From Pecten maximus (lineage: Eukaryota), in contig NC_047017.1 of the NCBI RefSeq assembly GCF_902652985.1, forward strand, positions 42,222,001 through 42,286,000: a DNA stretch of 64,000 bases, read 5' to 3'. A model generated the notes under the pieces. It was not told the origin of the DNA. It saw only the letters and a program-made list of their open reading frames with translations, and did no database searches. Numbering within the stretch: the stretch's first letter is position 1; every line of letters begins with the position of its first letter. Positions 7,466 through 40,900 of the stretch are shown one piece after another. The position numbers and the translations under genes are program-made.

Positions 7466-9416
7466 TATTTGTTCAATCATTGGGAGCCTAAATCTGAAAT
7501 CCAAAAGATTAAACCAGGAAAATCAAAATAGGTGTTAAGATATAACGAAATAAACATCAATCGACCTAGCAGAGTCTCGTGGGTTTCCGACGATTTGTTT
7601 TAAGTGATGTACTGAATATTGTTGACTTGTAGAAGTAATTAATTGGTACATGATCATCTATAGTCTGATGTATATGGTTTAAAGATCACCTGAATATAAA
7701 TGCGTCTTTTCATAATGTATATATATATATATTTCAGTGTTGTTACACAGATGGGGAGAGCTAATCCTTTGTTTATAATCAATCCTTTGTGTTTAATCAA
7801 TTTGATAATGTTTTAAAGAAGAAGACCAGTTACAAGGATATAATTCCTGGACAAAATAGAAGTTTTATATATAAAAGATTTTATAAATATATCTATATTA
7901 AGAAATAATGAATATTTCGTTTGTAAATTGTTTCCTGATAACTGATTACAATGGTCAAAATGGATACATCATTTTTACTCATATAATAGAATACAAAACG
8001 CTAGCTTAATAGTATAAGAATCCAGGCTTACATTTGACGTTGACAAAAGTGGCAATACTCTTCTGAAATGGTCTATGCACTGTACTGTAACAACCCAGCA
8101 AACTGTCACGAGAGGCGTGGGAAAGTCTTGTTGGACAGAAAAGTGTAACAGGTATTTACACTATGTAGAATGCAGGCCACCTATATTAAACCGTTTAATG
8201 ATATCATGCTTGCAACATCGGCTTAGCAGGTGCGACAAGTCTCTGTGCACGATAGTCCATCCAACATATAACATCCCCTCCTTGTAATGTTACATGGTTT
8301 TCACATTAAGTAACAAAACATCAAAATATTCTTGTCGATAGCTTGAGGAAATGGATATTGTTTATTGCCTGTAAACAGCGTGGCTTTATTTACTGGCTAG
8401 TATAATCAAAAGTGTTGTTTAAATAGCACATGCATCAATCAGATCAATACAATGCGAAATCTATTAAAGGTTTATCCTGGTGGATTTGAAATAAAATGTA
8501 CAGTGTTTTTGGTCAATAGTTAAGTATATTTCACTCTTGTTATTAATATTGTTTATTGCGCAGATAACTTATTAATATTGTTTATTGCGCAGATAATTAA
8601 CATAACGCACATGCCACGGTAGGAAAGTATATATAGTATATATATGTGTGTGTGTAAAATGAATATGGTATATATTGTAATAAAATGAACGACATGGGTT
8701 AATCATTATTATATTTACCTTTATCATTAAAATCAATAACAAAACAAGGTTTTACTTGATATATGTGCTTTGCGTTACCTTCGGTGCTATTCTAAACAGT
8801 AATGATGATTTAATTGTATTTATGTATAGCATGAATTAACATATTCATACCTATAACATTTGAATTTGCATTATTGTTTTAGCGTACACACAAAAAGGAA
8901 TATCAGAAATATATATACATACATGTATATATCGTTAATAATTTTATAGCTTTAAAAAACGAATTTAACTTATATAAAAATAGCTACCGAGAATGAAATA
9001 GATACCATATCCAAAAACATAAAACAAAACAAGTAGTGAGATCTAAAGTTGTCGGTAATTGATAATCAAAACTTAAAACAGCCCTTGGAAATGTTGGCAA
9101 GGTGTGACATGAGCTCCAGTGTTTTGGTCCTATTACGATCATTAAGAGAACAGATGGGGACTCAGGTTTGGTGAGGTTCATATTAATGTGTTTCTGAATC
9201 TAAATTCCATTGCTAAATATCGTTAACTTGTACATAAACAGTCAGCGAGAAGATCTCATTGTATCACCTCATTATCCATAGTCACTGTATAGCCAGCCAT
9301 GTAAGGTTGAGACGTGTGCAATCAACCGTAACGTGATCGATACATAGTGTACTGACCACATTCCTGAGCGTTCTAGCTTCATATACAGATATATTTATTA
9401 TATCATTTATACCGTA

Positions 9417-10886
9417 ATGACGCTACAGAGAGAACTATCGGTACACTTTTATCACAAGTTCCTAAGGGGAGTATCACATGAAGATGTATTAAATGGTATA
9501 GAAAAACTGAAAATTACTGATCATATAAAAGCGGTACAGATAACTGAGGACAGGTGTGTGATAACTTGTCAAAACGAGGACACTAAACGTGCATTATTAC
9601 TCAATGGAGCTGAAATAAAAAACCAATCAGTGAAACTTTTTGAAGTTGAGAAAACTGTGACAAACGTAACAATTAAAGATGCGCCATATGAACTTGGCAA
9701 CGAAGTCATAGCTTCATACATGTCTAAATATGGTCAAGTTGTGTCTGGAAGTGTTCGGAGAGGTACTATTCGCGGTACAACTATTGAAAACGGAACTAGA
9801 TACTTAAATATCGTTGGTTGCGTTCCTACGCTTCCGTTACGGGCATCAATCGGGCGCTTTGACATTCGTATTTTTGCGAACAATAATAGAACGCCATGTT
9901 ACCATTGCAATTTGAAAGACCACCCATCTTTCAAGTGTCCAAACAAACCTGAGCGTGAACCCAAGAGATGCTATGTATGTCAGAGTACTGATCACATCGC
10001 TCGGAATTGTCCACAAAATGAAGACCGTTTATGTCACTATTGCAACATGCCCGGTCACATTCAATCGGAATGTAAAGAACGAGATTTGGACCAATACAGC
10101 GAATACGCTGAAGATATAAGAGAAGGCAATAAAGACGGTTCTCACGAGTCGGACAATGAAACACACGAAACTATCACGGACAATAGACAAAAAATGCAAC
10201 ATAAGCCAATATCGCTAATACTTGGTGCGTCTAACGCGAAGCGAATCAAATTCAAGGCAAAGAATGTTGTAAACGCTTCGGTCTCAGGTGCTTCTCTAGC
10301 GAATATCGACCAATCACTGGAAACATCATTGTCATATGTAGGGGAGGATGCTTACATTAAAAACGTCACCGTTTGCCTTGGTACCAATGACGTTACAAGA
10401 AATCAAGATGACACAGACCAAATTGTAGTTGATCTTACAGCGGCTATAAATAAAATTGAATACCAATTTCCAGACGTTCCTATTGGAATTTGTGGAATTA
10501 TACCAAGGAAAGGTAATAGTGAGAAAGTATCCTTTCTCAATGATGTCGCAGAGAACGTCAATAGTTTTGCAGAAAAAATGTGTAAAAAGAAACCTCTGCT
10601 GGAATACGTAGATACACAGCGCCTCTTCACCAATGCAGGGAAAGTAATCGACACCCTTTACGACCCCTTTGATGCTGCAGGAATTCATATAAGTGAACAA
10701 GGTGTTGTTAAAATGCGCAATAAAATATCAACTTTCATGAACAAACCGGTAGATAACTCAGGTCCCATTACCGGAACTCCAGTTAATAGAAAGCGCAACA
10801 TTAGTGCAGCTACACCTCCATCAGCAGAACGTCAGCAAAGAAAGATACAAAAGTATGGAACACCGGGTACACCAGAAAATGTTTAA
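9417..10886 (+). CDS. LINE ORF1p: Tx1/ZCCHC3-like RRM region, three CCHC zinc knuckles and a C-terminal SGNH esterase-like domain
   Basis: Knuckles CYHCNLKDHPSFKC, CYVCQSTDHIARNC, CHYCNMPGHIQSEC. SGNH-like blocks LILGASN, VSGA, LGTND and DAAGIH. Intact 489 aa. Confidence 0.85.
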   Translation: MTLQRELSVHFYHKFLRGVSHEDVLNGIEKLKITDHIKAVQITEDRCVITCQNEDTKRALLLNGAEIKNQSVKLFEVEKTVTNVTIKDAPYELGNEVIASYMSKYGQVVSGSVRRGTIRGTTIENGTRYLNIVGCVPTLPLRASIGRFDIRIFANNNRTPCYHCNLKDHPSFKCPNKPEREPKRCYVCQSTDHIARNCPQNEDRLCHYCNMPGHIQSECKERDLDQYSEYAEDIREGNKDGSHESDNETHETITDNRQKMQHKPISLILGASNAKRIKFKAKNVVNASVSGASLANIDQSLETSLSYVGEDAYIKNVTVCLGTNDVTRNQDDTDQIVVDLTAAINKIEYQFPDVPIGICGIIPRKGNSEKVSFLNDVAENVNSFAEKMCKKKPLLEYVDTQRLFTNAGKVIDTLYDPFDAAGIHISEQGVVKMRNKISTFMNKPVDNSGPITGTPVNRKRNISAATPPSAERQQRKIQKYGTPGTPENV

Positions 10887-10977
10887 AAACTTTTAAAATA
10901 TTTTTGGGTGTAAATTGTCTTCAGTTGTTTAAACAAAATTATTCAACTAACTTTTTTGTACCTTTTATAGAAATCCT

Positions 10978-13900
10978 ATGTCAGTAACTATAGCTTCAAT
11001 TAATATAAATGGTTTACGAAATGTTGAAAAACGAAATGCTTTTTTCTACTGGTTAATCAAGAAAAAAATCGATATAATTGCATTGCAAGAAACTCACTGT
11101 AGTGATAATGATACCAAACTTTGGTCAAAAGAATGGTCGATTTTAGGTGGTGGCAAGAGCCTATGGAATAATGGTACGTCAGCCTCAAGAGGAGTAGCTA
11201 TCCTTACTAATAGTAGGACAAAAATATTACTAACAGAGCTCAATAGAGATAAAGAAGGACGGTTATTAACATGTAATATAAAAAGCGATGATAACGACCT
11301 TTTTAATTTAGTTAACCTGTATGCACCAAACAATTGCACGGAACGTAATCAATTTACAAGAAAAATTATAAATAAACATTCATGCAACAGTAGTTACGTA
11401 TATGCAGGAGATTTTAATTGTACATTAAATAATCAGATGGATAGATACCCACATAAAAACACGGATGACTCAACTGCCGCAAATCTAAACTTTTTCATTG
11501 AATCTTTCCAACTGATAGATATTTGGAGACTACGCAATCCGTTAAAATCTGATTACACTTTCAGAAGAGGCATTTCGAAATCAAGAATTGACATGTTCCT
11601 CATAACATCAGATATTGAAAGTGATACAATCAGCACAGATATTAAGCCTTGTGTTCATAGTGACCATGATATGATCACAATTAGAATAAAGTTAAATAAA
11701 ACAACAACTGGTCCGGGCACGTGGAAAATGAATGTAAATACCATACAAAATGATTATTTTAAAAATACCTTTCAAGCCTTTTGGAGGCACTGGACTACAG
11801 AAAAACGTAAATTTAACAATTTGAAAGATTGGTGGGATATTGCTAAAATTAAAATAAGAGAAATCACAATATCTATTTCGAAGATTAAAAAAACACCGGA
11901 TAGAATCATTGATGAATTGGAAAACGAACTAAGAAAACTAACAAAGGAAGACACCGTGTGTAATGATAAAATCAATAAGTTATCTAATACCTTAAGAGAA
12001 CATTATAGTCAGAAAGCAACTGGATTGAGAGTTAGAGCAAGAGTGCAAGAATATGAAGAAAATGAAAGATCAACCAAATACTTCTTCAACCTAGAAAAGC
12101 AACGCGCAAAAGAGAAATTATGGCATAAAATTAAAACAGCTGAAGGGATTTATAAAGAGGACTTACAGTCTATACAAAAAGAACAAATACGATTTTACAA
12201 ACAACTCTTTACTTCTGAGGGGTGGGATAGAGAAGCCGCAGATAAGTTGCTAGAAAACGTGCAGAAAAAAATTACTGATGAACAGAACTTGTATATGGAG
12301 TATGAATTAGAAGAAAACGAATTATTAAAAAGTATCAGTGAAATGAAGAAGAATAAATCACCAGGAGAAGATGGTATAACTGCAGAGTTTTATCAAATTT
12401 ATTGGTATGTTATCAAGAATGATTTCATTGAACTTGTTAACGAAATATGTAGAACTAATAAACTATCTGAATCACAATATAAAGGAATACTAACACTATT
12501 GTACAAAAAAGGTGAGAGAGAGGATATAAAGAATTGGAGGCCGCTAACAATGTTAAATGTAGACTATAAGATAATTGCAAAAACTTTGGCTAATCGAATT
12601 AAAAAAGTGCTTCCTGATATTATTCATCCGGATCAGAAAGGGTTCGTCCCGGGGAGAAATATTGCTGATGCTAACAGATTAATACAAGATGTTTTTGACT
12701 ATAGTAATTTAGAAAATAAAGAGGGCGCTGTTATCTTCTTAGATCAGCAAAAGGCGTTTGATAGAGTTGAATGGGGATGGCTTGATAAATGTCTTGAGAG
12801 GTTTAATTTTGGAACGAAAATGAGGGGATGGGTACAAATGCTGTTAAAAGATGCAAAAACTTGTATTAAAACCAATGGTTTCATTTCTGAGTACTTCAGC
12901 ATCTCTAGATCTGCTAGACAGGGCTGCCCAATCGCGCCGATTTTATATATTATGCAAGCAGAGCCTTTAGCATCTTCGATTAGAAAAAACAATAACATAA
13001 AAGGAATAACACTGCCAGGTCAAATCGAAACAAAGATTAATATGTTTGCGGACGACACCCAACTGTTTGTCAACGATGAAAGTTCAATAACAGAGTCATT
13101 CAAACTTTTAGGGGAGTATGAAAAGGCATCTGGTTCTAAAGTAAACCTACAAAAAACCACCGGAATTTATCTGGGACGATGGAAAAACAATATCCCACGT
13201 TACACAGCAATAAACTGGACAATATCTTATATCAAAACACTTGGCGTTAACCATGGACATGCAATAGACGACGACGCAATATGGAAGGAAAAAATAAAAA
13301 AGATTAACAGTTGTGTGCAAATTTGGAAAACAAGAAACCTATCTTTGTTTGGTAAAAATATCATTATTAAATCACTTATCATATCTAAAATAGGTTTCGA
13401 AATAGACGCCCGTGGCATACCTGAAAAATTCTTGAAGGAAATAAATACAATCATATGGAAATTTGTTTGGGATGGGAAGGTGGAAATGGTTTCCCGTAAT
13501 GTAGTGCGCTCCCAGAATTCAAGGGGTGGAATGGATATTATGGATGTAAATATGTTTACACTGAGTAAGCAGATAAAACTTATGTATAAAATATTGCAAA
13601 CTAACACAAGTGCGTGGAATGCCATTGGGCAGTATTGGCTCCATTCATTAGATGCGAAGTATGATATAAATTTCATGCTATGTAAATGTTCTGATATTAG
13701 CTCTTTAAATCTTAATCACATGTCTCCGTATTATAAAAACCTATTATCAGCATGGTCAATGTTTCTAAGAGTAAATAAACCTAATAGTACAGGAGAACTT
13801 TTAAAACAAGAATTATTTGGCAATCATCTGATTGTTTTTAACAGAAAATCATTATTTTATAGTTCATTTTCAAAAAGTGGAATCCACACCATAGGAGATT

Positions 13901-14753
13901 TATGGGATTCAACACATAAAAGGTTTAAAAATGATGAACATATTTATGAAAGATTAAGGGATAAAAGAAATTGTATATCCGAGTTGGCAAAACTCAAATT
14001 TGCGATACCGGATAGTTACAAAAGAATATTAAGAGAGGAAGATACTATTGTTCATGATGCGTGTGGATTAACAGTCGACAGTACATTGAATATCTTAGAT
14101 CAACACAACACTCAAATTATTCCTAATAAACTAAAACTGAAGAAAGTATGTACGAAACTAAATGGTAATAATGAACCCAAGGTTCAGACCAAATGGGAAA
14201 ATATTTACCGAAAGCAATTTCTATGGAAAGATATATGGCAAAACTGTTTCAATATATTAACATGTCTAAAAATTAAAGAATTTCAGTGGAAATGTTTGCA
14301 TCAATGTATATATACTGAAATGATGATACAAAAATTTGGAAAAACTTTGACGGAAAATGTCATTTTTGTAAGACCGAAAATGAAGATTTACAACATTTAT
14401 TCTTTAGATGTGAATATACTAAAATTATTTTGAATTATGTAGACACTTTAATGAAAGACATTGTACCTGGATATAATACTACCATTCTTGATAAAGAAGA
14501 GAATATAACTCTTGGTTACCCAGGTGCTGACAATTTCACTATTTTGACAAATACTATCATTTGTGTCATGAAATGGACATTATGGAAATGTAGAAATGAC
14601 ATTAAATATAACAACAATCATCCAAACTTAGACATAGCAAAATTAAAATTCAGAAGACAGCTAAAAAATGAGCTTTGGTGTTATTGCAAATCGAAACAGA
14701 AGAAAATAATTCCTGTTAATATTGTAACTCTAATGTATGAAAATATAATATAA
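10978..14753 (+). CDS. LINE ORF2p: APE endonuclease, reverse transcriptase and C-terminal CCHC zinc finger; 1-nt frameshift near 14340-14344
   Basis: EN motifs NINGL, QETH, GDFN, SRID, SDH. L1/Tx1 motif EENERSTKYFFNLEK. RT motifs SPGEDG, NWRPL, DQQKAFDRV, QGCP, FADD. After the A5 run the shifted frame reads CHFCKTENEDLQHLFFRC and runs to the stop at 14753 (1258 aa if one A is restored). Confidence 0.92.
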
Positions 14754-14948
14754 AATATTTCTATATTTCTTTTGTTGCATTGCATTGCCTGTTATGTTTT
14801 ATACAATGGACTTTATATTATTATATAACAGGCATGCATAAGACAATCTTTCATACATGAAAAGAAAATGTAATCTTTAAGTGATTGCTTTCATTATTAA
14901 ATAAAACAATAACTTATGCACTGTGATGATTATTGAGGATGAAAAACC

Positions 14949-15329
14949 NNNNNNNNNNNNNNNNNNNNNNNNNNNNNNNNNNNNNNNNNNNNNNNNNNNN
15001 NNNNNNNNNNNNNNNNNNNNNNNNNNNNNNNNNNNNNNNNNNNNNNNNNNNNNNNNNNNNNNNNNNNNNNNNNNNNNNNNNNNNNNNNNNNNNNNNNNNN
15101 NNNNNNNNNNNNNNNNNNNNNNNNNNNNNNNNNNNNNNNNNNNNNNNNNNNNNNNNNNNNNNNNNNNNNNNNNNNNNNNNNNNNNNNNNNNNNNNNNNNN
15201 NNNNNNNNNNNNNNNNNNNNNNNNNNNNNNNNNNNNNNNNNNNNNNNNNNNNNNNNNNNNNNNNNNNNNNNNNNNNNNNNNNNNNNNNNNNNNNNNNNNN
15301 NNNNNNNNNNNNNNNNNNNNNNNNNNNNN
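14949..15329. other. Assembly gap (381 N)
   Basis: Run of n characters. Confidence 1.
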
Positions 15330-15414
15330 TGCACATTTGCTTACTTGAAACAATAATGTGGTCAAAGATTTCAAAAATTTGCAGACTGAAAACCATTTCT
15401 CAAGTACTCTGAGT

Positions 15415-15448
<34 letters not shown>

Positions 15449-15584
15449 AAACTTAAAACAAACATCATCTTCAGACTGATCTAGTCTTGTTTTTTATCTA
15501 TTCATTTTTTTTTTTATTTTTGTACTGTAGGGTTTGATATCGATGTTTTGATGTTGATAGTCTTAATTTTGTTGTATGTTTCAG

Positions 15585-16035
15585 CTGTTTCCTGGATGGA
15601 GTGACAGCTCGGATTAGTAACATAGTTTTGACCACAGGCTCTATGTGTTTAATCCTAACTGTCAATGCAGTGCTCTATGCCCTCACCTGGTACCGTATTA
15701 CAACTGAGGCCAAACGCCTGGAATCCACACTAGGTGGCACTAGTGCCTCTGTTAAAGCGTCTCATCGAGCGGCCCGGAACATGTTTTTGTTTCTGACGGC
15801 TTTCTTCGTCCAGTGGTGGGCTCTTGCTGCGAATGGGATATGGCTTCTCTTCGCTGTACCGCCCGTAGCAATATTCCAAATCGTCACGACCTTTTCAAAC
15901 ATCGGCGGTGTCCTGAATCTGTTAGTGTATCTAATGATCCGACACAGGAAGAGGACTCTCGCACCAGCGGAAACTTCCAAAGCGGCGACTAAAACAACAA
16001 CTGTTATCTCTAATAATCAAGACAATACTAAGTGA
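15585..16035 (+). CDS. Orphan 7TM GPCR, exon 2 (ECL2 Cys, TM5-TM7, C-tail)
   Basis: TTTCAG acceptor ends at 15584. TA+C gives Tyr, then CFLDGVTAR, in frame with ORF 15601-16035. Three TM helices; TM7 reads SNIGGVLNLLVY. Joined CDS is 954 nt = 317 aa. Confidence 0.85.
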
Positions 16036-17624
16036 TCCTGTATGTGTACCCTAACATTTACCCTGTCTCAGTTTTTATAGGTTTTGGAGCTTTTAAGATC
16101 AACGACAATCTTCTGGCCATATATTAAATATATATTGATTTAGTCAAAAACAATTCTTTAAGCACTCCTTAGATACATTTTTATATTTGCCTTATCTAAC
16201 GCCTTTAAAAGGAATCAGCTTTATCTCGGGAAGATAATTTCATTTCAAGACCAATGAAAATATTTTCCACACTTATTGCATCAGATACGGTGAAATTCCG
16301 GTATGTATTTTTGAACAAGTTAGTCACTGACCACTGACTGCAATTCCTAATCATATCATTGCGTAACATTGTTAGTGAATGATTTTAATCATTAAATGCA
16401 TAGCCTATTGGCACATAGACATGTAGGTAGACATAAAAGCATATTCAGTTAAATTCAGTAAAAACAAAAATTGGGTCCTTCACCTCAAAATATATCTAGA
16501 GTAGCCATTTTGAAAATTGGTAAATTTCGCAGTAATCATTCTCAAACACCTGAAATGTTTACCTGTTAATTGGTATGACCCGAACATTGGAAAAAACATT
16601 AAATAGGACTTACGGACTTTACGAATCATTTTTTCCTATAAATAGTTACCTATCAGGCTACATATATAGTGTGTAACTTCATAATATACCGGCCAATCAG
16701 TGGGTGCCAGACATTTTATCCATGGCTCAACTTTATATACACAGGGGATGTTTCAAAAGTCTATTTTTTCAATTGATTGGTTGTTTCCTTTACGTGTAAG
16801 ACTGCAGGTCTAGTATTTATGACTTATTTCTAGATTGATACTGGAATATCACTAAGCACCCTCAAATATTTGACTTCATGATTAATTTGAACGTTTTGAT
16901 GAAATCTGTCGATTTAAAAGGTAATACATGTATGTAGTACTGATTATGTTGGAGTGATCTTTATAATCGTCTTGAATTAAATATACATTTCATTGCGGTT
17001 TACAAGTTGTTATGATAAGAAATAAGATAATACAACTTTCTTGAGAAGAAAGTACAGTGATTAATGTAAGGAACATAGTGCGTCAGAGACAACGTATTTG
17101 CTAATGTGGTTCGCTGCTTTAAAAAGACAAGATTGATGTACAAACACAGAAAAGCTGTAGCTAGATGTCATCTACAACGAACTAATGGGTTTGAAAATAT
17201 TTTATCGGCAATTAACATTGCTAAACTATTGTATAAACGACTGTTGATTATTGTAGGTTTCGATCTTATTATCGTCATAATATCACAATGAACGCACGCT
17301 TAGATTAGTCAAAGTTTGGCCAGCAGGCTTCATCCGCGTCACACCATCGGCAATGTAACTGTGTTTATGTTGGCTAATGGATATTAACGAAATATAGCAA
17401 CACACCCATATGCATATAGTCAGACAGTCATTTATAGATTTTATAATGGAATGAGGCTGTTTAGTTACACATATATATACAGATTGATGATCTATGTTAT
17501 ATCTATATTATGAATATCCCTACTGAGGGAAGATTGTAAAAATTGACAATACGCTCGTTATATATGTAGTGACAACTGGAACTTTCATTTATATATTGAA
17601 TTAACCTCAAACAGACGAAACGTA

Positions 17625-18891
17625 ATGATGTCACCGTCTCTACTCAGATTAATTATAGTGACATTAATAGCTCCGTCGAAGATCGTGTGCAATAACTCCA
17701 CTTATATGACGTCACTTCACGACAGTCTTCTTGATGGATACAAACCAGCAGTTCGGCCTGGGAGTGACTACTTGAATCAGGCAGTTAAGTTAAACATGAC
17801 ATTTGGGTTGAAAATAATTAAATCCTTTGATGAACTTGACAGTCGATTCTCTATCGTTGGTCATTTTACTATATCCTGGTATGATGAGCGGATGACCTGG
17901 GATCCCAGAATTTATGACGGTATCTCGATGGTGCAATTTCACCTAAAGGACGTATGGATACCTCCACTGACGTACTCGATATCATATAACAATGTTGACT
18001 TACTTGGAGATCCGCTCAGCATCCTGTCTTTTACTAACGGCGGTGAGGCTAACTGGGAACCATCAAATATCTTTGATACTGTTTGTAATGCCGATATATC
18101 ATATTATCCATTCGATAATCAAACTTGTGAATTGAGTGTTTTTGTCGTTGGATACGACAGACGACACATACAATTACACAACATGAACACTTATGTTGGT
18201 TTGAAGTACTATACCGAGAACCCGGTATGGGAATTGTTAGATTGTAAAATTAGTGTAGATGCAGGTATTTTAACGCTAAAGTTTTCTTTTAAAAGGCGAT
18301 CCGCGTTCATCGTAGTAAATCTGATGCTACCCCTGCTGTCTCTGTGTATACTCAACTTGTTTGTATTCGTTCTGCCGGTAGATTCCAATGAACGGGTAGG
18401 GTTCTCCATTACAATATTGTTGTCTATAACTGTGTTCATGTCCATAGTTTCGGATTTATTGCCAAACGCATCGTCACCAAGAATTGCTATATTCTGTTAT
18501 CTACTGTTGTTAGATGTGATTATTAGTGGTCTCATCAGTATCTGTACCATTCTCAGCATTAAACTGTACACTAAACCGAAAACGGAAGGTATCCCTACTC
18601 TCCTGTTTACACTTCAAAAACGTTTCAATGACAGGAAAACAGCAATTGGCGTAGCTCCAATCAGTCCACATCTATCAACTGTCACACTGGTAGGAACTAA
18701 CGATGTTGACGAAAACCTCGATGGAACTAACGATGGTGACAAAAAGGAGAGTAAAATAGAAAAGGATATTCGTGGTGGTACGTCTTGGACAGACGTTGGA
18801 CGTGCTTTTCGACAAAGTTTGTATTTTTGTGTTTTCCTTTTTGCTGATAACCGTTCATGTCACCTTCTTTCTGATCATGACAGTGAGATAG
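17625..18891 (+). CDS. Intronless divergent nAChR-like (non-alpha) Cys-loop channel subunit, paralog 1; +1 frameshift just before M4 (pseudogene or sequencing error)
   Basis: Signal peptide; Cys-loop CNADISYYPFDNQTC; M1-M3; M2 region DSNERVGFSITILLS. GCTTTTCGAC at about 18804-18813 versus GCTTTTGAC in paralog 2. Removing one base restores M4 and the homologous TAG at 18889-18891 (421 aa). Confidence 0.88.
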
Positions 18892-19039
18892 ATGTTTACA
18901 AATACACATCCACACAAGAATTATGTGTTCTACACAAACCAATGTAGGAATGATGTTTGTTCAGTGAGCATTATACGATGACAATTGTTTATAGAACATA
19001 TTAAAGTGCAAATGAAAAGATTATGGCATTAATAAGTCG

Positions 19040-21990: not shown

Positions 21991-23063
21991 GCGAGATCAC
22001 CAATTATATATATGTACTTTCATGTTTTTGATCAATGAAAATTATTTTGGACCTGAAAAAAAGAGATAAAACTGGTAAGCATATGCATTTAGTAACACAA
22101 TAATAAACAAAGTAAATCGTGCAAACAAAAAACAAAAAAACATGGTGAGCATGCATCATGTACGGAGTGTCAAAGTAGGTCATACCTATTTTACACATAT
22201 TTTGAGTTTGACAAACTGAAGCCACTACAATATAATCATTGGATGACCTATAACCTTTCACGGAAATCTAACTCGCTGTATTGATGAAATTAGCTTTATT
22301 GCGTTCACAATCAAACATAATCCTATCAGAGATCATACTAGTCCACCGAGTTGTTCCCTCGGGTATCAACTCTTCAAAGGTGCTTTAATCGAATTTTCGC
22401 GTGACAAATAGAACAATTGTGTTATTTTTGGAAGTCAGTAATGTATTGTAATGCTTTGTTATTTTATTAAAGGTTTACACAGCATCTAATGGGTTAACTA
22501 ATATTCATATTCGTATTTCATGCTGTTTTGATTGACACTAATGAACTCCTGTATACTAAAGCCAACCTGTTATTGTCCGTTTGATCAACACCCTACTAAC
22601 AGTATAACTGTGACCGCACCTTCAACCAACCAAGTTCGTCCGGAGTGTGTAACAGTGTTATCATATAAATCAAAGATAAATGGATACACTTTGTATAACA
22701 ATGCAAACTAGCTGGTTCCTGGAAGACTCGTATACATATATAGTTAATACATGTGTATATTAATTATAGGCCATTTCTATTGCAAGTTATCTAAAAGAAA
22801 AAAGGACATTCGTCATGGGAAACTGTATTCATAATAACATTTATATAGTTGTTTAAACAAAATTGTTATGCAAGCGGTATGACATGTATAGAGAGATAGA
22901 CAGATGTACGCGTGCGATGCAGTAACACTTCAGACTTGTTTCAACGTGCATTGTAGCATCGGCATTCGTTTTCGAAACAAAGTGAAAACATATGATCCAT
23001 GGCATCTCGAAGTTTGAAAATTTAATAGCGAAGTGAACTTGAAACAGACAAAATACATTGAAA

Positions 23064-24311
23064 ATGATGAATACAGACACTTACAAACCGCAAATAGGAT
23101 TAATCATGTTGGCACTAATAGCTCCGATGGAGATAGTGTGTAATAATTCGACTTATATGACGTCACTACACAGGAGTCTTTTACACGGATACAAAACAGC
23201 TGTCCGGCCTGGAAATAACTACTCGAATAAATCATTTCCGCTAAACGCGTCTTTTGGATTACTTCTAATAAAATCATTTGAAGAACTTAAAAGTCGATTC
23301 TCCATCGTTGGTACATTCTTTATATCTTGGTATGATGAGCGATTGACCTGGGACCCCAGCAAATATGACGGTATATCGACGATGCATTTCCTCGAAAAGG
23401 ACGTATGGATACCTCCACTGAGGTACTCGATAGCATATACTAATAACGATTTACTTGGAGACCCGCTCAGCATTCTGTCTTTTAGCAGTGACGGTATAGC
23501 TAAGTGGGAGTTATCAAATATCTTTGATACTGTCTGTAACGCTGATATATCATATTATCCGTTCGATAATCAAACCTGTGAGATACGCCTGTTTGTGGAT
23601 GGGTATGATTATCGAGAGATACATGTACACACTAGACAAAATACTGCTGACCTAACATACTATATTGAGAACTCTGAGTGGGAACTGATTATCATCGACG
23701 TTAACGCAAAACCAGACAGTCTAATGTTACAATTTTCATTAAAAAGGCGATCTGCGTTCATAGTAGTAAATATGATGCTACCCCTTCTGTCCTTGTGTAT
23801 ACTCAACATGTTTGTATTTGTTCTGCCGGTAGATTCTGGCGAACGGGTAGGGTTCTCCATTACGATATTGTTATCCATTTCTGTGTTCATGTCCATAGTT
23901 TCGGATTTATTGCCAAACGCATCATCACCAAATATTGCTATATTCTGCTATTTGCTGTTGTTAGATGTGATTATTAGTGGTCTCATCAGTATCTGTACCA
24001 TTCTCAGCATTAAACTGTACACTAAACCGAAGATGGAATGTATTCCCATATTCCTTTGTATACTCCAAAAATGTCTCAATGGAAAGAAATCGACGGTTGG
24101 CGTAGTCCCTTATGATGCCAGACTGTCTACTGTCACACTGGATGAAACTAACCATGTCGACAAAAATGAGTGTAAAGAAGAAAAGGCTGCAGATGTTGGA
24201 ATATCGTGGACAGACATTGGACATGCTTTTGACAAAGTTTGTATTTTTATGTTTTCAATTTTGCTGACAACTGTCCATGTTACCTTCTTTCTGATCATGA
24301 CAGTGAGATAG
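23064..24311 (+). CDS. Intronless divergent nAChR-like (non-alpha) Cys-loop channel subunit, paralog 2 (intact, 415 aa)
   Basis: ATG at 23064; signal peptide; Cys-loop CNADISYYPFDNQTC; four TM helices; DSGER before M2 (cation-type E at -1'); no vicinal CC in loop C. Confidence 0.92.
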   Translation: MMNTDTYKPQIGLIMLALIAPMEIVCNNSTYMTSLHRSLLHGYKTAVRPGNNYSNKSFPLNASFGLLLIKSFEELKSRFSIVGTFFISWYDERLTWDPSKYDGISTMHFLEKDVWIPPLRYSIAYTNNDLLGDPLSILSFSSDGIAKWELSNIFDTVCNADISYYPFDNQTCEIRLFVDGYDYREIHVHTRQNTADLTYYIENSEWELIIIDVNAKPDSLMLQFSLKRRSAFIVVNMMLPLLSLCILNMFVFVLPVDSGERVGFSITILLSISVFMSIVSDLLPNASSPNIAIFCYLLLLDVIISGLISICTILSIKLYTKPKMECIPIFLCILQKCLNGKKSTVGVVPYDARLSTVTLDETNHVDKNECKEEKAADVGISWTDIGHAFDKVCIFMFSILLTTVHVTFFLIMTVR

Positions 24312-27223: not shown

Positions 27224-29210
27224 TTATTTGCAAAACAAACTATAGATAGTTTTGGAAACGTCCAACATCACAAGTACTCCCACAGTTACAGAAAGTATGG
27301 AAACACCGAGAGCCCCCATAGTATATGCACTTTGTCGATCGTCTGTTGCGCTTATCTTCTTCCTTATTGCAGCGGTGGTCTCATTTTTTGCTACTTTTGT
27401 TGAGTTTATCAGCTTCTCAATTTTCTTTGCCAATTGAAGACTGCCAATTTCTAAAGATATGTTGCTTATCATGAAACACTTGCACGTACAATCAGCCAAA
27501 TTGTTTGGTATCATATAATATTGAGAGGTCACGTTATCCATATGCGACGATGTTGTCGGAGACGAAATTGTCACCGTTGTTGTTTCCGTAGATTGAAACG
27601 CCGTTGTAGTTGATAGTTGTGTTGAACTAATTGTAGTCGGCGTTGTCAACGGTTCTGAAATTGTAGACATAGTAGTCGAAGTCATTGTCGTTGTTGATGT
27701 TGTATCTATATCTGTTATGGGTGTTGTTGACGTCGAAGGAGATAATACCGTTGTTGATGTTGTCGTTAGCAATGATGTAGATGTTGTTGACAGTTGTATT
27801 GTTGTCGTTGTCAAAATCGTCGACGTTGTTGTCGGTTCTGAAGTCGTTGACGTCGGAGTTGATATCGGTTGTGTTGCTGTGGACGCTGTTGATGTGGACT
27901 GAGATGATACGGTTGTCTCAGGCTGAGTTGTCATTGCCGTAGTTGTAGTCGACGTTGTTGTCGGCTCTGAAGTCGTTGACGTCGGAGTTGATATCGGTTG
28001 TGGTGTGGACGCTGTTGATGTGGACTGAGATGATACGGTTGTCTCAGGCTGAGTTGTCATTGCCGTAGTTGTAGTCGACGTTGTTGTCGGTTCTGCAGTT
28101 GTAGAAGTTGTAGATGATGGTGGTTGGGTCGTTGTTATGAACATTGTTGATGTCGATGGTGATGATACTGTTGTTAAGGTCGTCGTTGGCCGAGTTGTCG
28201 ACGTTGTTGACGAATGGGTTGTCGTTGTTGATGCTGCTGCTGATGTTGTTGTTGTTGTTGATGATGGTGTTGTTGTTGGCAATGTTACCGGTGCTATAAT
28301 ATAAAAATGTAGAACTAATGATACAAGCTGGAGGACGGGGTTAAAGGCAATAACCTAATAATGTAATTTTGTAATGCGTGGATTATTGACATTGTCTGGT
28401 TGCTTTACCCACAAATTAAGAACGTGAACATATATTGGGATCTACATATATTTATTTGTACGTTTATACAGACTGTAGTATACATGTATAATGTCCTTAT
28501 AACATACAATGTACAATGATCATGTTTTAAACGCTCTTGGAAATGTATACGTCGCCAGCACTGTAGATAATTTGTTTATCGATGGCTCCTTTTAACTCTA
28601 TAAGGAAACTCACATGGAAATCCACAGCCAATAATGTCGAATCGTAACGACATATTGGTGAAGTAGGTGAGTGGACTAATCCGAATGGACATAGCATACA
28701 GCGGTCTGGGTAGATGTCTCGTAACTGTATCTTCATGGTTCGATAAATCATTCGCTGGGAATAGCTATCGTAAATATGTGATTTCATTATTATACAATGT
28801 ATATATTTAAACATTCGTTGTTAATGGGTGGATTTTTACGTTAGAAAACAGATTAAATTCAGTATTCAGTAAAGGTTGTAGCATATTATAAGGACAATGA
28901 AAGAAAGATAGCGCGTACGTGTATTTAAACACTTCTGTCTTGTTTAAAGCGACTTAAAGAAAATTAATAAACATAGTTTGTCTATCTTCATGAATAAATC
29001 CAGTGATGATATAACAAGTCGTATTTTCCATAAATAGGTTATATAATTAATTGTTTGAGTTACCTTCGGTTGGTCATGAGAATCCTGATATTGTGACCAC
29101 TTGTCTCCATCAGAGTTGTAATACAGATAATAAGACCGAACATGGCTACCATCTAACCTGTTACCTGTCGTCGTGATACAGGTTATATTTACCAGAGTCC
29201 CAAAATCTAC
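27224..29210 (-). CDS. Duplicated terminal cassette A (exons 29210-29064, 28764-28614, 28293-27224): C-terminal two-thirds of discoidin 5, mucin stalk and TM
   Basis: All three exons are open and keep their AG/GT sites. Phase-0 entry is compatible with the donor at 35962. Stalk differs from copy B by in-frame indels. Confidence 0.75.
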
Positions 29211-30909: not shown

Positions 30910-31961
30910 TTATTTGCAAAACAAACTACAGATAATTTTGGAAACGTCCAACATCACAAGTACTCCCACAGTTACAGAAAGTATGGAAACACCTAGAGCC
31001 CCCATAGTATATGCACTTTGTCGATCGTCTGGTGCGCTTATCTTCTTCCTTATTGCAGCGGTGGTCTCATTTTTTGCTACTTTTGTTGAGTTTATCAGTT
31101 TCTCAATTTTCCTTGCCAATTGAAGACTGCCAATTTCTAAAGATATGTTGCTTATCACGAAACACTTGCACGTACATTCAGCCAAATTGTTCGGTATCAT
31201 ATAATATTGAGAGGTCACGTTATCCATATGCGACGATGTTGTCGGTAACGAAATTGTTACCGTTGTTGTTTCCATAGATTGAAACGCCGTTGTGGTTGAT
31301 AGTTGTGTTGAACTAATTGTAGTCGGCGTTGTAGTCGGCGTTGTCGTCGGTTCTGATATTGTAGACATAGTAGTCGAAGTCATTGTCGTTGTTGATGTTG
31401 TAGCTATATCTGTTATGGGTGTTGTTGACGTCGAAGGATATGATACCGTTGTTGATGTTGTCGTTGGCAATGATGTAGATGTTGTTGACAGTTGTATTGT
31501 TGTCGTTGTCAAAATCGTCGACGTTGTTGTCTCAGGCTGAGTTGTCATTGCCGTAGTTGTAGTCAACGTTGTTGTCGGCTCTGAAGTCGTTGACGTCGGA
31601 GTTGATATCGGTTGTGGTGTGGACGCTGTTGATGTGGACTGAGATGATACGGTTGTCTCAGGCTGAGTTGTCATTGCCGTAGTTGTAGTCGACGTTGTTG
31701 TCGGTTCTGCAGTTGTAGAAGTTGTAGATGATGGTGGTTGGGTCGTTGTTATGAACATTGTTGATGTCGATGGTGATGATACTGTTGTTAAGGTCGTCGT
31801 TGGCCGAGTTGTCGACGTTGTTGACGAATGGGTTGTCGTTGTTGATGCTGCTGCTGATGTTGTTGTTGTTGTTGATGGTGTTGTTGTTGGCAATGTTAAC
31901 ATCGCTTGGGTTGTGAAAGCTGTAGTCGTCGATGTCGGAGTTGTTGGCAATGTTACCGGTG
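30910..31961 (-). CDS. Terminal exon, copy B: Thr-rich mucin stalk, CxCxC, juxtamembrane segment and TM
   Basis: ORF 30910-31950 extended to the TATAG acceptor at 31962. Ends MGALGVSILSVTVGVLVMLDVSKIICSLFCK. Confidence 0.88.
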
Positions 31962-34900
31962 CTATAATATAAAAATGTAGAACTAATGATACAAGCTCGA
32001 GGACTGAGTTAAAGGCAATAACCTAATAATGTAATTTTGTAATGCATGGATTATTGACATTGTCTGGTTGCTTTACCCACAAATTGAGGTCGTGAACATA
32101 TATAGTGATCTACATATATTTATTTGTACGTTTATACAGACTGTAGTATACATGTATAATGTCCTTATAACATACAATGTACAATGATAATGTTTTAAAC
32201 GCTCTTGGAAATGTATACGTCGCCAGCACTGTAGATAATTTGTTTATCGATGGCTCCTTTTAACTCTATAAGGAAACTCACATGGAAATCCACAGCCAAT
32301 AATGTCGAATCGTAACGACATATTGGTGAAGTAGGTGAGTGGACTAATCCGAATGGACATAGCATACAGCGGTCTGGGTAGATGTCTCGTAACTGTATCT
32401 TCATGGTTCGATAAATCATTCGCTGGGAATAGCTATCGTAAATATGTGATTTCATTATTATACAATGTATATATTTAAACATTCGTTGTTAATGGGTGGA
32501 TTTTTACGTTAGAAAACAGATTAAATTCAGTATTCAGTAAAGGTTGTAGCATATTATAAGGACAATGAAAAAAAGATAGCGCGTACGTGTATTTAAACAC
32601 TTCTGTCTTGTCTAAAGCGACTTAAAGAAAATTGATAAACATAGTTTGTCTATCTTCATGAATAAATCCAGTGATGATATAACAAGTCGTATTTTCCATA
32701 AATAGGTTATATAATTAATTGTTTGAGTTACCTTCGGTTGGTCATGAGAATCCTGATATTGTGACCACTTGTCTCCATCAGAGTTGTAATACAGATAATA
32801 AGACCGAACATGGCTACCATCTAACCTGTTACCTGTCGTCGTGATACAGGTTATATTTACCAGAGTCCCAAAATCTACCTGTCATAACATAAATAATCAA
32901 TGTATGTCGATGTTTTGAGGAAATTTGAAATCGTACGGTACTCAATCCTTACAATACAACTTAAGTGGTTCGATCTGAAAATAAAGCGAAATATTCTATG
33001 AATAAGATTTGTTTTCATGTGCCTATACTCAAATTACAAAACCTGGACAACAACACCACAAGGTCTGCGGCTCATCTTTATGGGAAATATCAGGAAATAT
33101 CCAATCATAATCAGATCTGCGATTTCCGAAGGTTTACCGATAAAGCAAACTATTACATCATCTACAATTACATGAATGTTGTATTTCAAACAACAAATGA
33201 TTGCAAAGGAAATCAAAATACTGCGAAAACTGAATGAGACGTAAGTGAGATATTTTGACATTGAAAACAATTATCTTTAAAAGCTTACATTGAAACAAGT
33301 GGCTCATGAGTCTCAAAAGTCAATAGAAACCCTTTTTGGCAATGCCTATCAGCTCTTGGGCTCAGATCAACAGTCTTAGACCATCAAATTAACATGCAAA
33401 ACTGCTCATTCCAGCTAAGTAAGAATAAATTCCAGTAGAAATTCAACAAATGATAGTCAAATATATAATTTCCCAATATAAACTACAATAAAATTTACCC
33501 CTCAAAAGGGCCAAACTTGAGACACCAGGGTCATGAAATTCGCAACTGTTGTAAAGCACCCTTAAAGCACTTCCGTCTTTGAAGAGTTTTTGATTCTACA
33601 ATACTTGGGTCTTGATTTTGTTTTTGTTTTTTTTTGTTTTTGTTTTTTTTTTAATTTCAGGTAATCTGACCCTTTTTGCCCCCGCCCATCAGTCCATGAG
33701 GGTCAGTCACTGCCAACATGGGCATACCATCAAATTGTCCTCCCATGCTGACAATTTCAACCAAGTAAGAATCAATTCCAATAGAAACAATTGCTAGTTG
33801 TAATGGGAAACAATTACAGAAACGCCCCTGCAGTGGTACAACTGTGTCCGGCATCCCTCAATATCCCTATATACCAAAATTTATTGAAATTAAACAATAT
33901 CTGATTTCGACCAATCCATATGGTTTCTATGGCAACGAAACCCATTAAGTGAGTTTCGCAGTCTCCTAATACAAATTGGACAATATCTAAATTTGGACCA
34001 ATCAGAGGTCAGGAAATGGCGTCCATCTTTATTGATCGATCGAGGTAAAAAGGGTCAGTTGCACATCTCCTGACCATGATGAACATTTGTATTAAGTTTC
34101 GTGAAGTTCCGTCTAACAGTTTTTGAGAAATGTGTCGGAAACTTAAGAAGAAGAATTTGGGTAATGAGAAGAAGTTGCTCGAAATTTCAGTCAATTTAAG
34201 CCCTTTTTGTCCCGCCTCTCAGTCAGTGGAGTTTGGAGACTATAACTCACAATTTTGGTTGAACTATGGCGCTAGGAGTGTGGTGGCTGGGGGCTGCAAA
34301 ACTCTAACGAAAGTGGTTCAGGGATTTCTGAGAACAGTCGAAAAAATTTCATCTTGAATTCAGACTTGGTTTCGCAGTAAACAAATATTGATGATCCCAG
34401 TACAGAGCTACCTTGTCGGCTATCATGGGTCTTTATTTAAAAACAGAGACGTACATTATTTGGGGAAGCAGTCACAGTGATCGATCAATAGATCGGATAT
34501 TAGTCACAGACCTCATCAAAATGACACAAGCCTTTATTTATGTTTGTAACACAATAAACATCATGAAGATGTACATGTACATATGTAACGCTCGTTTTTA
34601 TTGGTCGAAAAGTTCATGGGTGAAGGGCGTTATTTCAAATCTCCGCTGGAGGGCCAGAGCTGACGACGATATCTAATAAGGGTCCATGGAGTGTAACGCA
34701 ATCAGAAGCCTTGGCTAGCAAAGATGATGCATCAATAATATTAAAGTATATTTGTACATAGATCAAAAACATTCGTTTCATAGCAGTAAACGCCAGTCAC
34801 GATGAAAAATAAATTAACCATTTCATAATATTTTAATCATTTGACCAGTGATGTAAATCTAGAAACCGGCCCAACTGAATCCCAATAAGCGTCCCTCGAT

Positions 34901-37900: not shown

Positions 37901-40900
37901 TGTAAGTCTACCTTCAAAATGAAAATGATAAAAGTTATTGTCCATATTGTAGATGCGAGCGGCACTTTAGTTACAAAAAACATTTTCATAGATTTCAATT
38001 CAGAATTTTTGTGTGAAATAGTTACCACAGTTCACTACATATTAAACTGTATGCACCTGACGACGTTGTCTCTCTAACACACGTTTAATACAATGTGGTA
38101 TACCTGTATATACTTGTTATTGTCATCATTCCGAGCACACCAGCCGTGTGTTGAATTGTATCGAGAGTTCCACGGCTCAAGGAAAGTTCCTCTTGTTGAG
38201 CTGGCGGAGAAACTTTCGTCCGATAGCGTAAGTTCAGTTATCAAATACGTATCGCATTGCGATCCAGCTGGAAACATCAAATATGGTAACTTGAATAAAA
38301 GTAATTTGTTTTTGAAAGCCTGATTTGTTCCGTTCTTTGGAATTGTAATTATATTATTTAAGCCGCAATTACAAAGCGAATTTGTTTATAGTATCATTTG
38401 AACCATTCAAGTTATTTATACACAAGTTCAATAACTTACATATCATGTATCAACGATAAACAATCTTACCGTAACTACATGTGACGTTTTCTATGTACGC
38501 TGTATAAAAGAAGTAATAAATGTAAAAAATTAACATGTCAATAAACATACCATAATAAACATTTATAATTGCGTAAAATGTTAAATATAGGACCATTTTT
38601 CCTCGTGTCTGTGTACACTTTTATCTGGTGCAACTATTCATGAGAATGAAAGCTATGATATAGGGTATCGAAGCCCGAATCATACATAAGAAAGTCAGCG
38701 TCGTACATAACAAAGTCAGAGTTGTACATAACAAAGTCAGCGTCGTACATAACAAAGTCAGCGTCGTACATAGCAAAGTCAGAGTCGTACATAACAAAGT
38801 CAGAGTCGTACATAACAAAGTCAGAGTTGTACATAACAAAGTCAGAGTGGTACATAACAAAGTCAGCGTCGTACATAGCAAAGTCAGCGTCGTACATAAC
38901 AAAGTCAGCGTCGTACATAACAAAGTCAGCGTCGTACATAGCAAAGTCAGAGTCGTACATAACAAAGTCAGAGTCGTACATAACAAAGTCAGAGTTGTAC
39001 ATAACAAAGTCAGAGTTGTACATAACAAAGTCAGAGTTGTACATAACAAAGTCAGCGTCGTACATAACAAAGTCAGAGGTGTACATAACAAAGTCAGAGT
39101 CGTACATAACAAAGTCAGAGTTGTACATAACAAAGTCAGCGTCGTACATAACAAAGTCAGAGTTGTACATAACAAAGTCAGAGTGGTACATAACAAAGTC
39201 AGCGTCGTACATAACAAAGTCAGAGTTGTACATAACAAAGTCAGAGTTGTACATAGCAAAGTCAGAGTTGTACATAACAAAGTCAGAGTCGTACATAACA
39301 AAATCAGAGTTGTACATCACAAAGTCAGAGTCGTACATAACAAAGTCAGAGTCGTACATAACTAAGTCAGAGTCGTACATAACAAAGTCAGAGTTGTACA
39401 TAACAAAGTCAGCGTCGTACATAACAAAGTCAGAGTTGTACATAACAAAGTCAGAGTCGTACATAACAAAGTCAGAGTTGTACATAACAAAGTCAGAGTC
39501 GTACATAACAAAGTCAGAGTCGTACATAACAAAGTCAGAGTGGTACATAAAGTCAGAGTTGTACATAACAAAGTCAGAGTTGTACATAACAAAGTCAGAG
39601 TTGTACATAACAAAGTCAGAGTTGTACATTGTAGTGTATTCATTCCGGAACTATATAAGTGTCCGGATCCCATTTAGTCTCGCCTGGCGTAGTGATATGT
39701 TTTATGGAAATAAATAGTTCTAATTTGCCGCCATTGAATATACAGTTGTGTTATTCTGTTCCTCCGGTGAAGACACCACATATTGGCGACGAGGATGTCT
39801 GAATCCATCCAGGAAACGTAAGATGGGACAAGAGACTTGTTTATAAGATAATCAAGTAATCTAGACATCGCAATTTTGCAGGAGACCCCTGGTAGAAGGT
39901 ATTTTTGTTCTGGGTCGATTTCGTTGTTCAAACCACGTGTATCGGTGCGGATAATTGTGAATTTCCCCAACATCAATATAAACCAGTATGACGGGTAAAG
40001 TTGGCAGAATTGACACTTTCGATGAGAGTATAGAACGATGGGAAGCCTATAAAGAACGGCTAGACCAATATTTTATTGCTAATACAATAAAAGAAGAAAA
40101 ACAAGTCCCCGCTCTCCTCAGTCTGATTGGCGGAAGGACATACGGACTTCTGCGTGATTTGACCGCGCCAGATTTACCGGCAACCAAAACATACCCAGTT
40201 TTGACGAAAATTTTGCAAGACCATTACTCGCCGAAACCGCTTGTAATAGCTGAACGTTACCGGTTTCACAAACGGGATCAACGTGAGGGAGAGTCAATTA
40301 GGGATTATAATGCAGCCCTTAGGAAACTGAGCGAGAATTGTACATTCGGAGACACACTCAATGATACATTGAGAGACAGATTAGTTTGTGGGTTGAAGGC
40401 AGAACATATACAGAAAAAGTTATTAACCGAATCTGATTTAACTTACCAGAAGGCACTAGAGGTCGCTATAGCCTTTGAAACAGCCACGAAGGATGCGGTA
40501 GAGCTACAGAGACAACACGTGAAGACTCCAGTACATAAGATACGGAAAGAGAAAGTACAACAGCAAACTACCAAGAAACCTTCATTTCCCAACAAGCATG
40601 ACAAGAATAAGGTTTGTTATCGTTGTAAAGGCACACACCACCCCAACGATTGCCATTTCAAAGACGCCATTTGTCATAAGTGCAATAAAAAGGGACATAT
40701 AAAGAAAGCGTGCTTGTCTGGTAAACCATGGAAGAAGGGTGCTCCAGTACACAGAGTTCAAGATGACAGTGGGTCTGAACCAGAGATGATCAGCTCACTA
40801 GAGATATTTGACATTTCGAGCCGTTCAGGAGAATCTGGCGGTTCTGATGCCATTTGGTTACACCCTATGGTTGATGATGTTGAATTGGCCATGGAGTTGG

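Follow-up and report, generated by a model that had tools for sequence, protein, structure and literature searches.

An L1-group (Tx1-type) LINE of Pecten maximus encodes an ORF1 protein that joins RNA-binding modules to an SGNH hydrolase domain

Esterase-type (type IV) ORF1 proteins (ORF1ps) are described in the papers surveyed for CR1, L2, RTEX and Penelope elements only, as a class without RNA-binding domains; in the available part of the supplement of PMC3905857, the elements named are CR1, RTEX and Penelope, and Tx1 is absent. An open reading frame at positions 9417-10886 of a 64,000-nucleotide stretch of Pecten maximus DNA (contig NC_047017.1, 42,222,001 to 42,286,000, forward strand; hereafter the window) raises the question of whether a single LINE protein can combine such an esterase with the RNA-binding modules of the L1 group and, if so, how the combination arose and what it does. 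A first-pass annotation, made from the letters alone, had proposed a Tx1/L1-clade LINE whose ORF1p ends in an SGNH esterase-like domain, and the motifs that it quoted for ORF1p and ORF2 are all present in the sequence. We found no description of an esterase in an L1 or Tx1 ORF1 in the literature surveyed, which includes the available parts of PMC7140322, PMC13343379, PMC11203168, PMC10351740 and PMC8557442; Repbase and Dfam entries may already record the layout. Each part of the protein is familiar by itself, and repeat libraries probably contain the elements already. In UniRef, such proteins go by names that mark them as having CCHC or SGNH domains, and database entries labelled CNBP or lysophospholipase-like are likely to be retrotransposon ORF1s.

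The element and its clade

Window positions 9081-15445 hold a young L1-group (Tx1-type) LINE with a 17-bp target-site duplication (TSD) and a poly(A) tail. Its features are the following:

9064..9080, + strand: target-site duplication, left copy, 17 bp, an exact match to 15444-15460
9081..9416, + strand: 5′ UTR; the alignment to other copies begins at 9081
9417..10886, + strand: ORF1, 489 aa, intact (ORF list, translation, Pfam)
10978..14753, + strand: ORF2, with APE endonuclease at aa 6-230, RT at aa 511-741 and a C-terminal zinc knuckle (Pfam, other copies)
14754..15445, + strand: 3′ UTR, partly N in the window, with a 29-nt poly(A) tail at 15417-15445
15444..15460, + strand: target-site duplication, right copy, an exact match to the left copy

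The window copy is without ~12 terminal 5′ bases found in other copies (the extra bases are common to L031, L034 and L035), and loose ends occur at 9081 in sequencing runs X2, X3 and X8. Its ORF2 gives endonuclease and RT Pfam matches, and the frame is broken near codon 1122, with a stop at 14433. This break is absent from other copies: L034 and L036 have an unbroken 1257-aa ORF2 with the terminal zinc knuckle, and that of L034 also gives a zf-RVT Pfam match. The host genome (G000) contains eight copies on six contigs, 99-100% identical over the 5′ 1.8 kb, of which five span this whole region and three are 5′-truncated. A poly(A) tail, variable TSDs and 5′ truncation are traits of the L1 clade (L1/Tx1), and all are present in this family. 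The LINE of the window is recently active. In RNA run X1, 25 of 30 bins are covered by contigs, which leave the upstream flank empty; contigs do not demonstrate transcription and DNA may be present, so we do not count this coverage as evidence of expression.

The flanks of copies L031-L035 contain no shared target sequence beyond A/T-rich junctions, and we rejected site-specific insertion for this family, which differs in this respect from the site-specific Tx1 families. The likeness to Tx1-type L1-clade LINEs (PMC5203782, PMC4120745) lies in the APE-RT-zinc knuckle ORF2, the poly(A) tail, the TSD of ~15-17 bp and an ORF1p in which tandem RRMs are followed by knuckles. The window's element differs in its added SGNH domain and its three knuckles, whereas neighbouring families mostly have two knuckles and no SGNH domain.

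Against human L1 ORF2p, the product of ORF2 scores 305 bits in an alignment that spans aa 3-870. Among same-genome controls, an L1-group family scored 308 against the human protein, and two non-L1 LINEs scored 100 and 83, in the RT core only. The proposed L1-group membership of ORF2 was upheld by phylogeny as well. In a 36-row RT tree, whose outgroups are host-genome elements labelled by motifs and Pfam domains rather than named references, an L1 group of 23 rows has a support of 100/99 and contains the window's RT, apart from the CR1/L2, RTE-like and I-like RTs. All 12 esterase-bearing rows, six from the host genome and six from metagenome contigs, form one branch inside this group (99/97), and a mixture-model tree without the long CR1-type branch gives 100 for the L1 group and 95 for the esterase branch. 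Thinning of copies and similar families removed 21 loci from the RT tree, broken or short RTs a further 14, and the mixture-model rerun left out four more. Named Tx1, CR1 and RTEX references are absent from both this tree and the esterase tree described below, and no ORF2 named as Tx1 occurs among the best 120 of 315 RT-search matches. We use the label Tx1 because the ORF1p is of type I (RRM then CCHC), a type tied in animals to Tx1 (PMC5203782), and because, within the L1 group, Tx1 is the clade that PMC10294476 lists for bivalves. We regard the architecture and the clade assignment as close to certain.

Domains, active site and constraint of the ORF1p

To the window's ORF1p we compared its relatives in a set of 97 proteins (the window's included) that match RRM and SGNH profiles over most of their length. 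The protein reads RRM-RRM-3×CCHC, acidic linker, SGNH domain and basic disordered tail, all in one reading frame:

9438..9878, + strand: two tandem RRM domains, aa 8-72 and 81-154 (models; Foldseek matches to HuR, IMP3, U2AF65 and hnRNP A1)
9897..10073, + strand: three CCHC zinc knuckles, aa 161-219 (sequence; Pfam zf-CCHC; Lin28 and nucleocapsid matches)
10083..10199, + strand: acidic low-confidence linker, net charge -8, the slot of a NADAR domain in 16 of 97 relatives (model, sequence)
10200..10751, + strand: SGNH hydrolase domain, aa 262-445, with S272, G291, N324 and H424, and D419 five residues before the His
10752..10883, + strand: basic tail, disordered (pLDDT ~50), that contains an RKR...TPPS motif

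The N-terminal half is indeed of the Tx1 RRM/knuckle type, with three CX2CX4HX4C knuckles at aa 161-219, and the number of RRMs is two, not one as first annotated. A separate model of aa 1-159 returned RRM-containing RNA-binding proteins in all matches listed (best E 3.9e-5), with a TM of only ~0.3-0.4 because the two RRM domains hinge. In the tail, a basic-then-S/T-P pattern recurs in 75/97 relatives.

The proposed SGNH-like nature of the C-terminal domain was borne out by both sequence and structure comparisons. Lipase_GDSL_2 matches aa 280-429 with an E value of 5.6e-11 and 43.7 bits, above the Pfam cut-off of 32.9, and further matches are found to Lipase_GDSL (E 1.4e-8) and zf-CCHC (E 3.1e-7). 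An AlphaFold model of the ORF1p, built from 47 sequences, has a mean pLDDT of 83.8, with ~90 or more per 10-residue block across aa 261-440. The structural check that had been suggested for aa 260-445 recovered the SGNH fold: aa 262-444 of the model form a five-stranded parallel alpha/beta fold that aligns to SGNH hydrolases with a Z of 19.6 and an rmsd of 2.5 over 172 residues. Foldseek returned the ZfL2-1 ORF1 esterase (4c1b) at E 2.3e-7 and 22% identity, the highest identity among the matches listed, and a profile of 21 SGNH domains placed the same structure second of 30 PDB matches (E 3.9e-11), behind a streptococcal protein. An ESM Atlas search gave unnamed or GDSL clusters only. The substrate cannot be read from the fold: the best structural matches are carbohydrate and PAF acetylesterases, and Oskar OSK, an RNA-binding protein without enzyme activity, also aligns with a Z of 17.1 (rmsd 2.8, 165 aligned).

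When compared with ZfL2-1 and other type IV ORF1ps, the protein has its SGNH domain in the same ORF1 position, and blocks I-III and V align. It differs in its two RRMs and three knuckles, where type IV has no defined RNA-binding domain, and in the L1-group RT of its element, where the type IV elements have a CR1, L2, RTEX or Penelope RT. From ZfL2-1 it differs also in the active site, with the Asp five rather than three residues before the His, GAS in block I and Cys at both positions of a His/Ser pair.

The catalytic residues are retained across the 97 proteins (S272 in 97, G291 in 96, N324 in 80, H424 in 96 and all four in 78), in counts that are somewhat inflated because the set was picked by family-built profiles. 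The GAS block I and DxxGxH block V of the window protein, noted in the first-pass annotation as possible signs of altered catalysis, are both present, but they are lineage traits rather than decay, since they are widespread: block I is GAS in 49 proteins and GDS in 42, and Asp or Glu stands five residues before the His in 92. An acid three residues before the His is found in 6/97; the window protein has no Asp there, and its block V is slightly longer than that of ZfL2-1, by a short insertion in the alignment. Nor need variants of this kind mean that the enzyme is dead, because a survey of SGNH structures shows the same latitude, with an acid-to-His spacing of 1-12 residues, a backbone oxygen as the acid and several non-GDS forms of block I (PMC10792757). 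The suspicion of altered catalysis nevertheless survives on better ground. Hydrolysis by ZfL2-1 was blocked when H191 and S228 were mutated together (PMC3905857). The residues aligned to these two in the window protein are C320 and C359; its sub-lineage has lost this transposon-specific His/Ser pair, which 34/97 relatives retain. The block III Asn is missing from 17/97 relatives, with Cys in its place in 12/97. We note a deep two-knuckle subgroup (P0164, P0176, P0183, P0191, P0193 and relatives) that has mostly lost this Asn and kept the Ser and His.

The SGNH domain has diverged no faster than the endonuclease, at 48 versus 49% identity against L041 and 39 versus 40% against L046. Parity with the endonuclease while synonymous sites are saturated points to purifying selection on the SGNH domain; dN/dS is beyond reach, between families because of this saturation and among the young copies because they differ too little.

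Spread of the layout and origin of the esterase

A search with the single protein found 69 homologues, 62 of which have a GDSL Pfam match, with Ylistrum, Pinctada, Mytilus, Saccostrea and Pecten among the named sources, and with a profile as the query, 249 representatives were recovered at E up to 1e-30. The search for the same domain order elsewhere, raised with the original observation, thus located it in 97 proteins from bivalves and the annelid Owenia fusiformis, two clusters of which share the layout. The 97 proteins form 66 groups at 50% identity; for distant members, adjoining ORF2s were examined in the metagenome loci. Many diverged families with the same ORF1 layout are present in the host genome. 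A chance fusion or assembly artefact, with an esterase fragment in one dead copy, would fit the frame-broken ORF2 of the window copy but is refuted by the eight near-identical copies on six contigs, the diverged families, the GDSL matches of the homologues and purifying selection, and we give it practically no weight. The Tx1/esterase lineage is real, old and still active, and it unites two ORF1 classes that have been treated as separate.

The 16 next-nearest RT families in the host genome (39-45% identity) include none with an SGNH domain, and a related RRM region is present in 13/16, which suggests that the esterase was likely appended, and likely once, to a native Tx1 ORF1. The local chimera or ORF1 module swap of the first-pass annotation did not hold up, as the RRM-knuckle half is homologous to the ORF1 of esterase-free relatives at those 13 loci. 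A whole-ORF1 swap from a CR1/L2 element is ruled out by the same match of the N-terminal half to the ORF1 of esterase-free L1-group neighbours.

In an unrooted tree of esterase domains, the 30 Tx1-type domains fall on one side; support for this grouping is 81/90, and it occurs in 80% of bootstrap trees. At 99/96 they are joined by two other sequences, the CR1-type ORF L072 and P0430, an esterase of ZfL2-like type with a coiled coil, while 11 other SGNH ORFs of the host genome are set apart; the SGNH ORFs L074 and L085 were dropped, their block III pattern being unmatched. This grouping, the profile match to ZfL2-1 and the retention of the His/Ser pair in 34/97 relatives substantiate the suspected kinship with LINE esterases. 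We consider a single gain of the esterase from a LINE donor probable, with CR1/L2/RTEX as the putative type of the donor and a putative transfer from it into the Tx1 lineage. A search of the esterase profile against longer proteins yielded only 11 matches among 7991 scored and no named donor. An element of CR1/L2 type with its own esterase ORF (L072:2797-6039) and a longer esterase ORF (L074:6521-7942) sit in the same genome, and possible donor types therefore coexist with the lineage. Capture of SGNH domains by retroelements has recurred, as the GDSL/SGNH ORFs of bdelloid LTR and Athena elements illustrate (PMC5408684); those differ in being separate ORFs or in belonging to other element classes, and they were captured independently of LINE esterases (PMC5408684).

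A NADAR domain lies between knuckles and esterase in the 16 relatives mentioned above (P0063, P0068, P0081, P0183, P0201 and 11 more), which fall into two distinct regions of the esterase tree. The window's family has no NADAR, and none turned up in the host-genome and metagenome loci examined. Oyster Tx1 ORF1s of Repbase elements likewise contain NADAR, for which a role in RNA processing has been proposed, and the available main text and searchable supplements of that paper mention neither esterase nor SGNH (PMC12477816). Since 16/97 members carry NADAR, the oyster Repbase entries may belong to this lineage, although the window's own family differs from them in having none.

Other SGNH and ORF1 sequences were seen in these searches. 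The host genome has many further short repeated SGNH ORFs (L071, L073, L076-L079, L083 and L087-L090), in which block III reads GGND and which lie away from any LINE RT; they form a separate branch and may represent another class of mobile element. A tandem array with a 4051-bp period (L018-L020 and L044; G000:C18:17.22 Mb) is made of ORF1 and the beginning of the endonuclease from a related family, and in L070 a fragment of a related ORF1 occurs twice in inverted orientation, ~2.6 kb apart.

Candidate functions of the SGNH domain

Our best explanation, to which we assign a probability of about 0.5, is that this is an L1-group LINE ORF1p whose SGNH domain, gained once from a CR1/L2/RTEX-type LINE, acts as a slow esterase or lipid binder that places the RNP on membranes. 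The RRMs and knuckles would coat the element's own RNA in cis, and the flexible acidic linker would give the SGNH domain access to a membrane, where contact may be made by a conserved basic PRKG loop (R or K at 364 in 86/97 relatives and at 365 in 77/97). There, S272 and H424, together with an acid supplied by D419 or by a backbone carbonyl, would hold or slowly cleave an acyl chain, as proposed for ZfL2-1, and ORF2p would insert the element by target-primed reverse transcription at A/T-rich sites. For the ZfL2-1 esterase, both activity and liposome binding are established (PMC3905857), and a requirement of LINEs for ESCRT is in line with a membrane role (PMC5478143). Set against this, the SGNH domain is not notably basic (net +1, with a family median of 0), while liposome binding by ZfL2-1 was ascribed to surface charge, and slow hydrolysis in the manner of ZfL2-1 has to contend with Cys at both H191/S228 positions and with the lack of an Asp at His-3. 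Taken by itself, the lipid or membrane role is predicted by analogy with ZfL2-1 and is at best an even bet.

The near-invariance of the Ser, Gly and His and of the acid at His-5, taken with the neutral net charge and the acetylesterases at the head of the fold matches, would also suit an active deacylase for a non-lipid substrate (an acetyl- or acyl-modified protein, sugar or nucleotide-derived mark). Such an enzyme, borne on the RNA particle, would undo a host defence mark, with the ORF1p as a platform for accessory enzymes, and the addition of NADAR beside the SGNH domain in 16/97 relatives favours this idea. We consider it somewhat unlikely, as ZfL2-1 showed low turnover and no deacetylase activity on histone peptides (PMC3905857), and as NADAR is lacking from the window's family and from the loci examined. 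The GAS block I, the displaced acid and the exchange of the His/Ser pair for Cys/Cys suggest a different possibility, in which the domain is a non-catalytic scaffold that, like OSK, binds RNA or self-associates and replaces the coiled coil of other esterase ORF1ps. The structural match to OSK and the precomputed OSK match (PF17182) of several homologues agree with this. However, OSK shares the fold and has no catalytic triad (PMC10792757), whereas Ser, Gly, Asn and His are all present in 78/97 proteins here and the Ser and His are near-invariant across the 66 groups; SGNH enzymes tolerate both the acid spacing and a backbone acid, and the protein already has five RNA-binding modules. A scaffold role thus appears improbable.

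The preferred reading, a slow esterase or lipid binder at membranes, has a more far-reaching version, in which an old lophotrochozoan Tx1 lineage has a Gag-like all-in-one ORF1p, whose one end packages RNA like a nucleocapsid and whose other end is a lipase that grips membranes, with an exchangeable NADAR slot, and loads LINE particles into membrane vesicles. We treat this as a long shot; if true, vesicle loading would allow the element to pass from cell to cell and from one aquatic host to another. Because the deep L1-group lineage keeps both kinds of domain, the esterase would add a function atop RNA packaging rather than replace it, and because separate domains hold the RNA-binding job, the esterase should be cleanly removable or mutable. 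The role of LINE esterases thereby becomes a more testable question, with esterase-free sister families in the same genome and natural variants to hand (GDS with His/Ser, GAS with Cys/Cys, with and without NADAR).

The remainder of the window contains several further features. Hydrophobic frames that resemble a seven-helix receptor gene split in two, without a Pfam match, flank the LINE at 2348-2899 and 15538-16035 (+ strand); as these putative halves lie on either side, the LINE may lie in an intron. Two intronless Cys-loop (acetylcholine-receptor-like) ORFs stand in tandem at 17547-18947 and 23043-24311 (+ strand), and a mucin-like frame, rich in Thr and Ser and hydrophobic in a C-terminal segment, is present in duplicate at 27224-28354 and 30910-32022 (- strand). 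A Gypsy-type LTR retrotransposon at 38683-45686 has an unbroken 1346-aa ORF (39982-44022, + strand) and is flanked by two arrays of one 21-bp repeat (45 and 49 copies), likely within the LTRs. A 32-bp satellite of 127 copies with extreme GC skew occupies 48048-52117.
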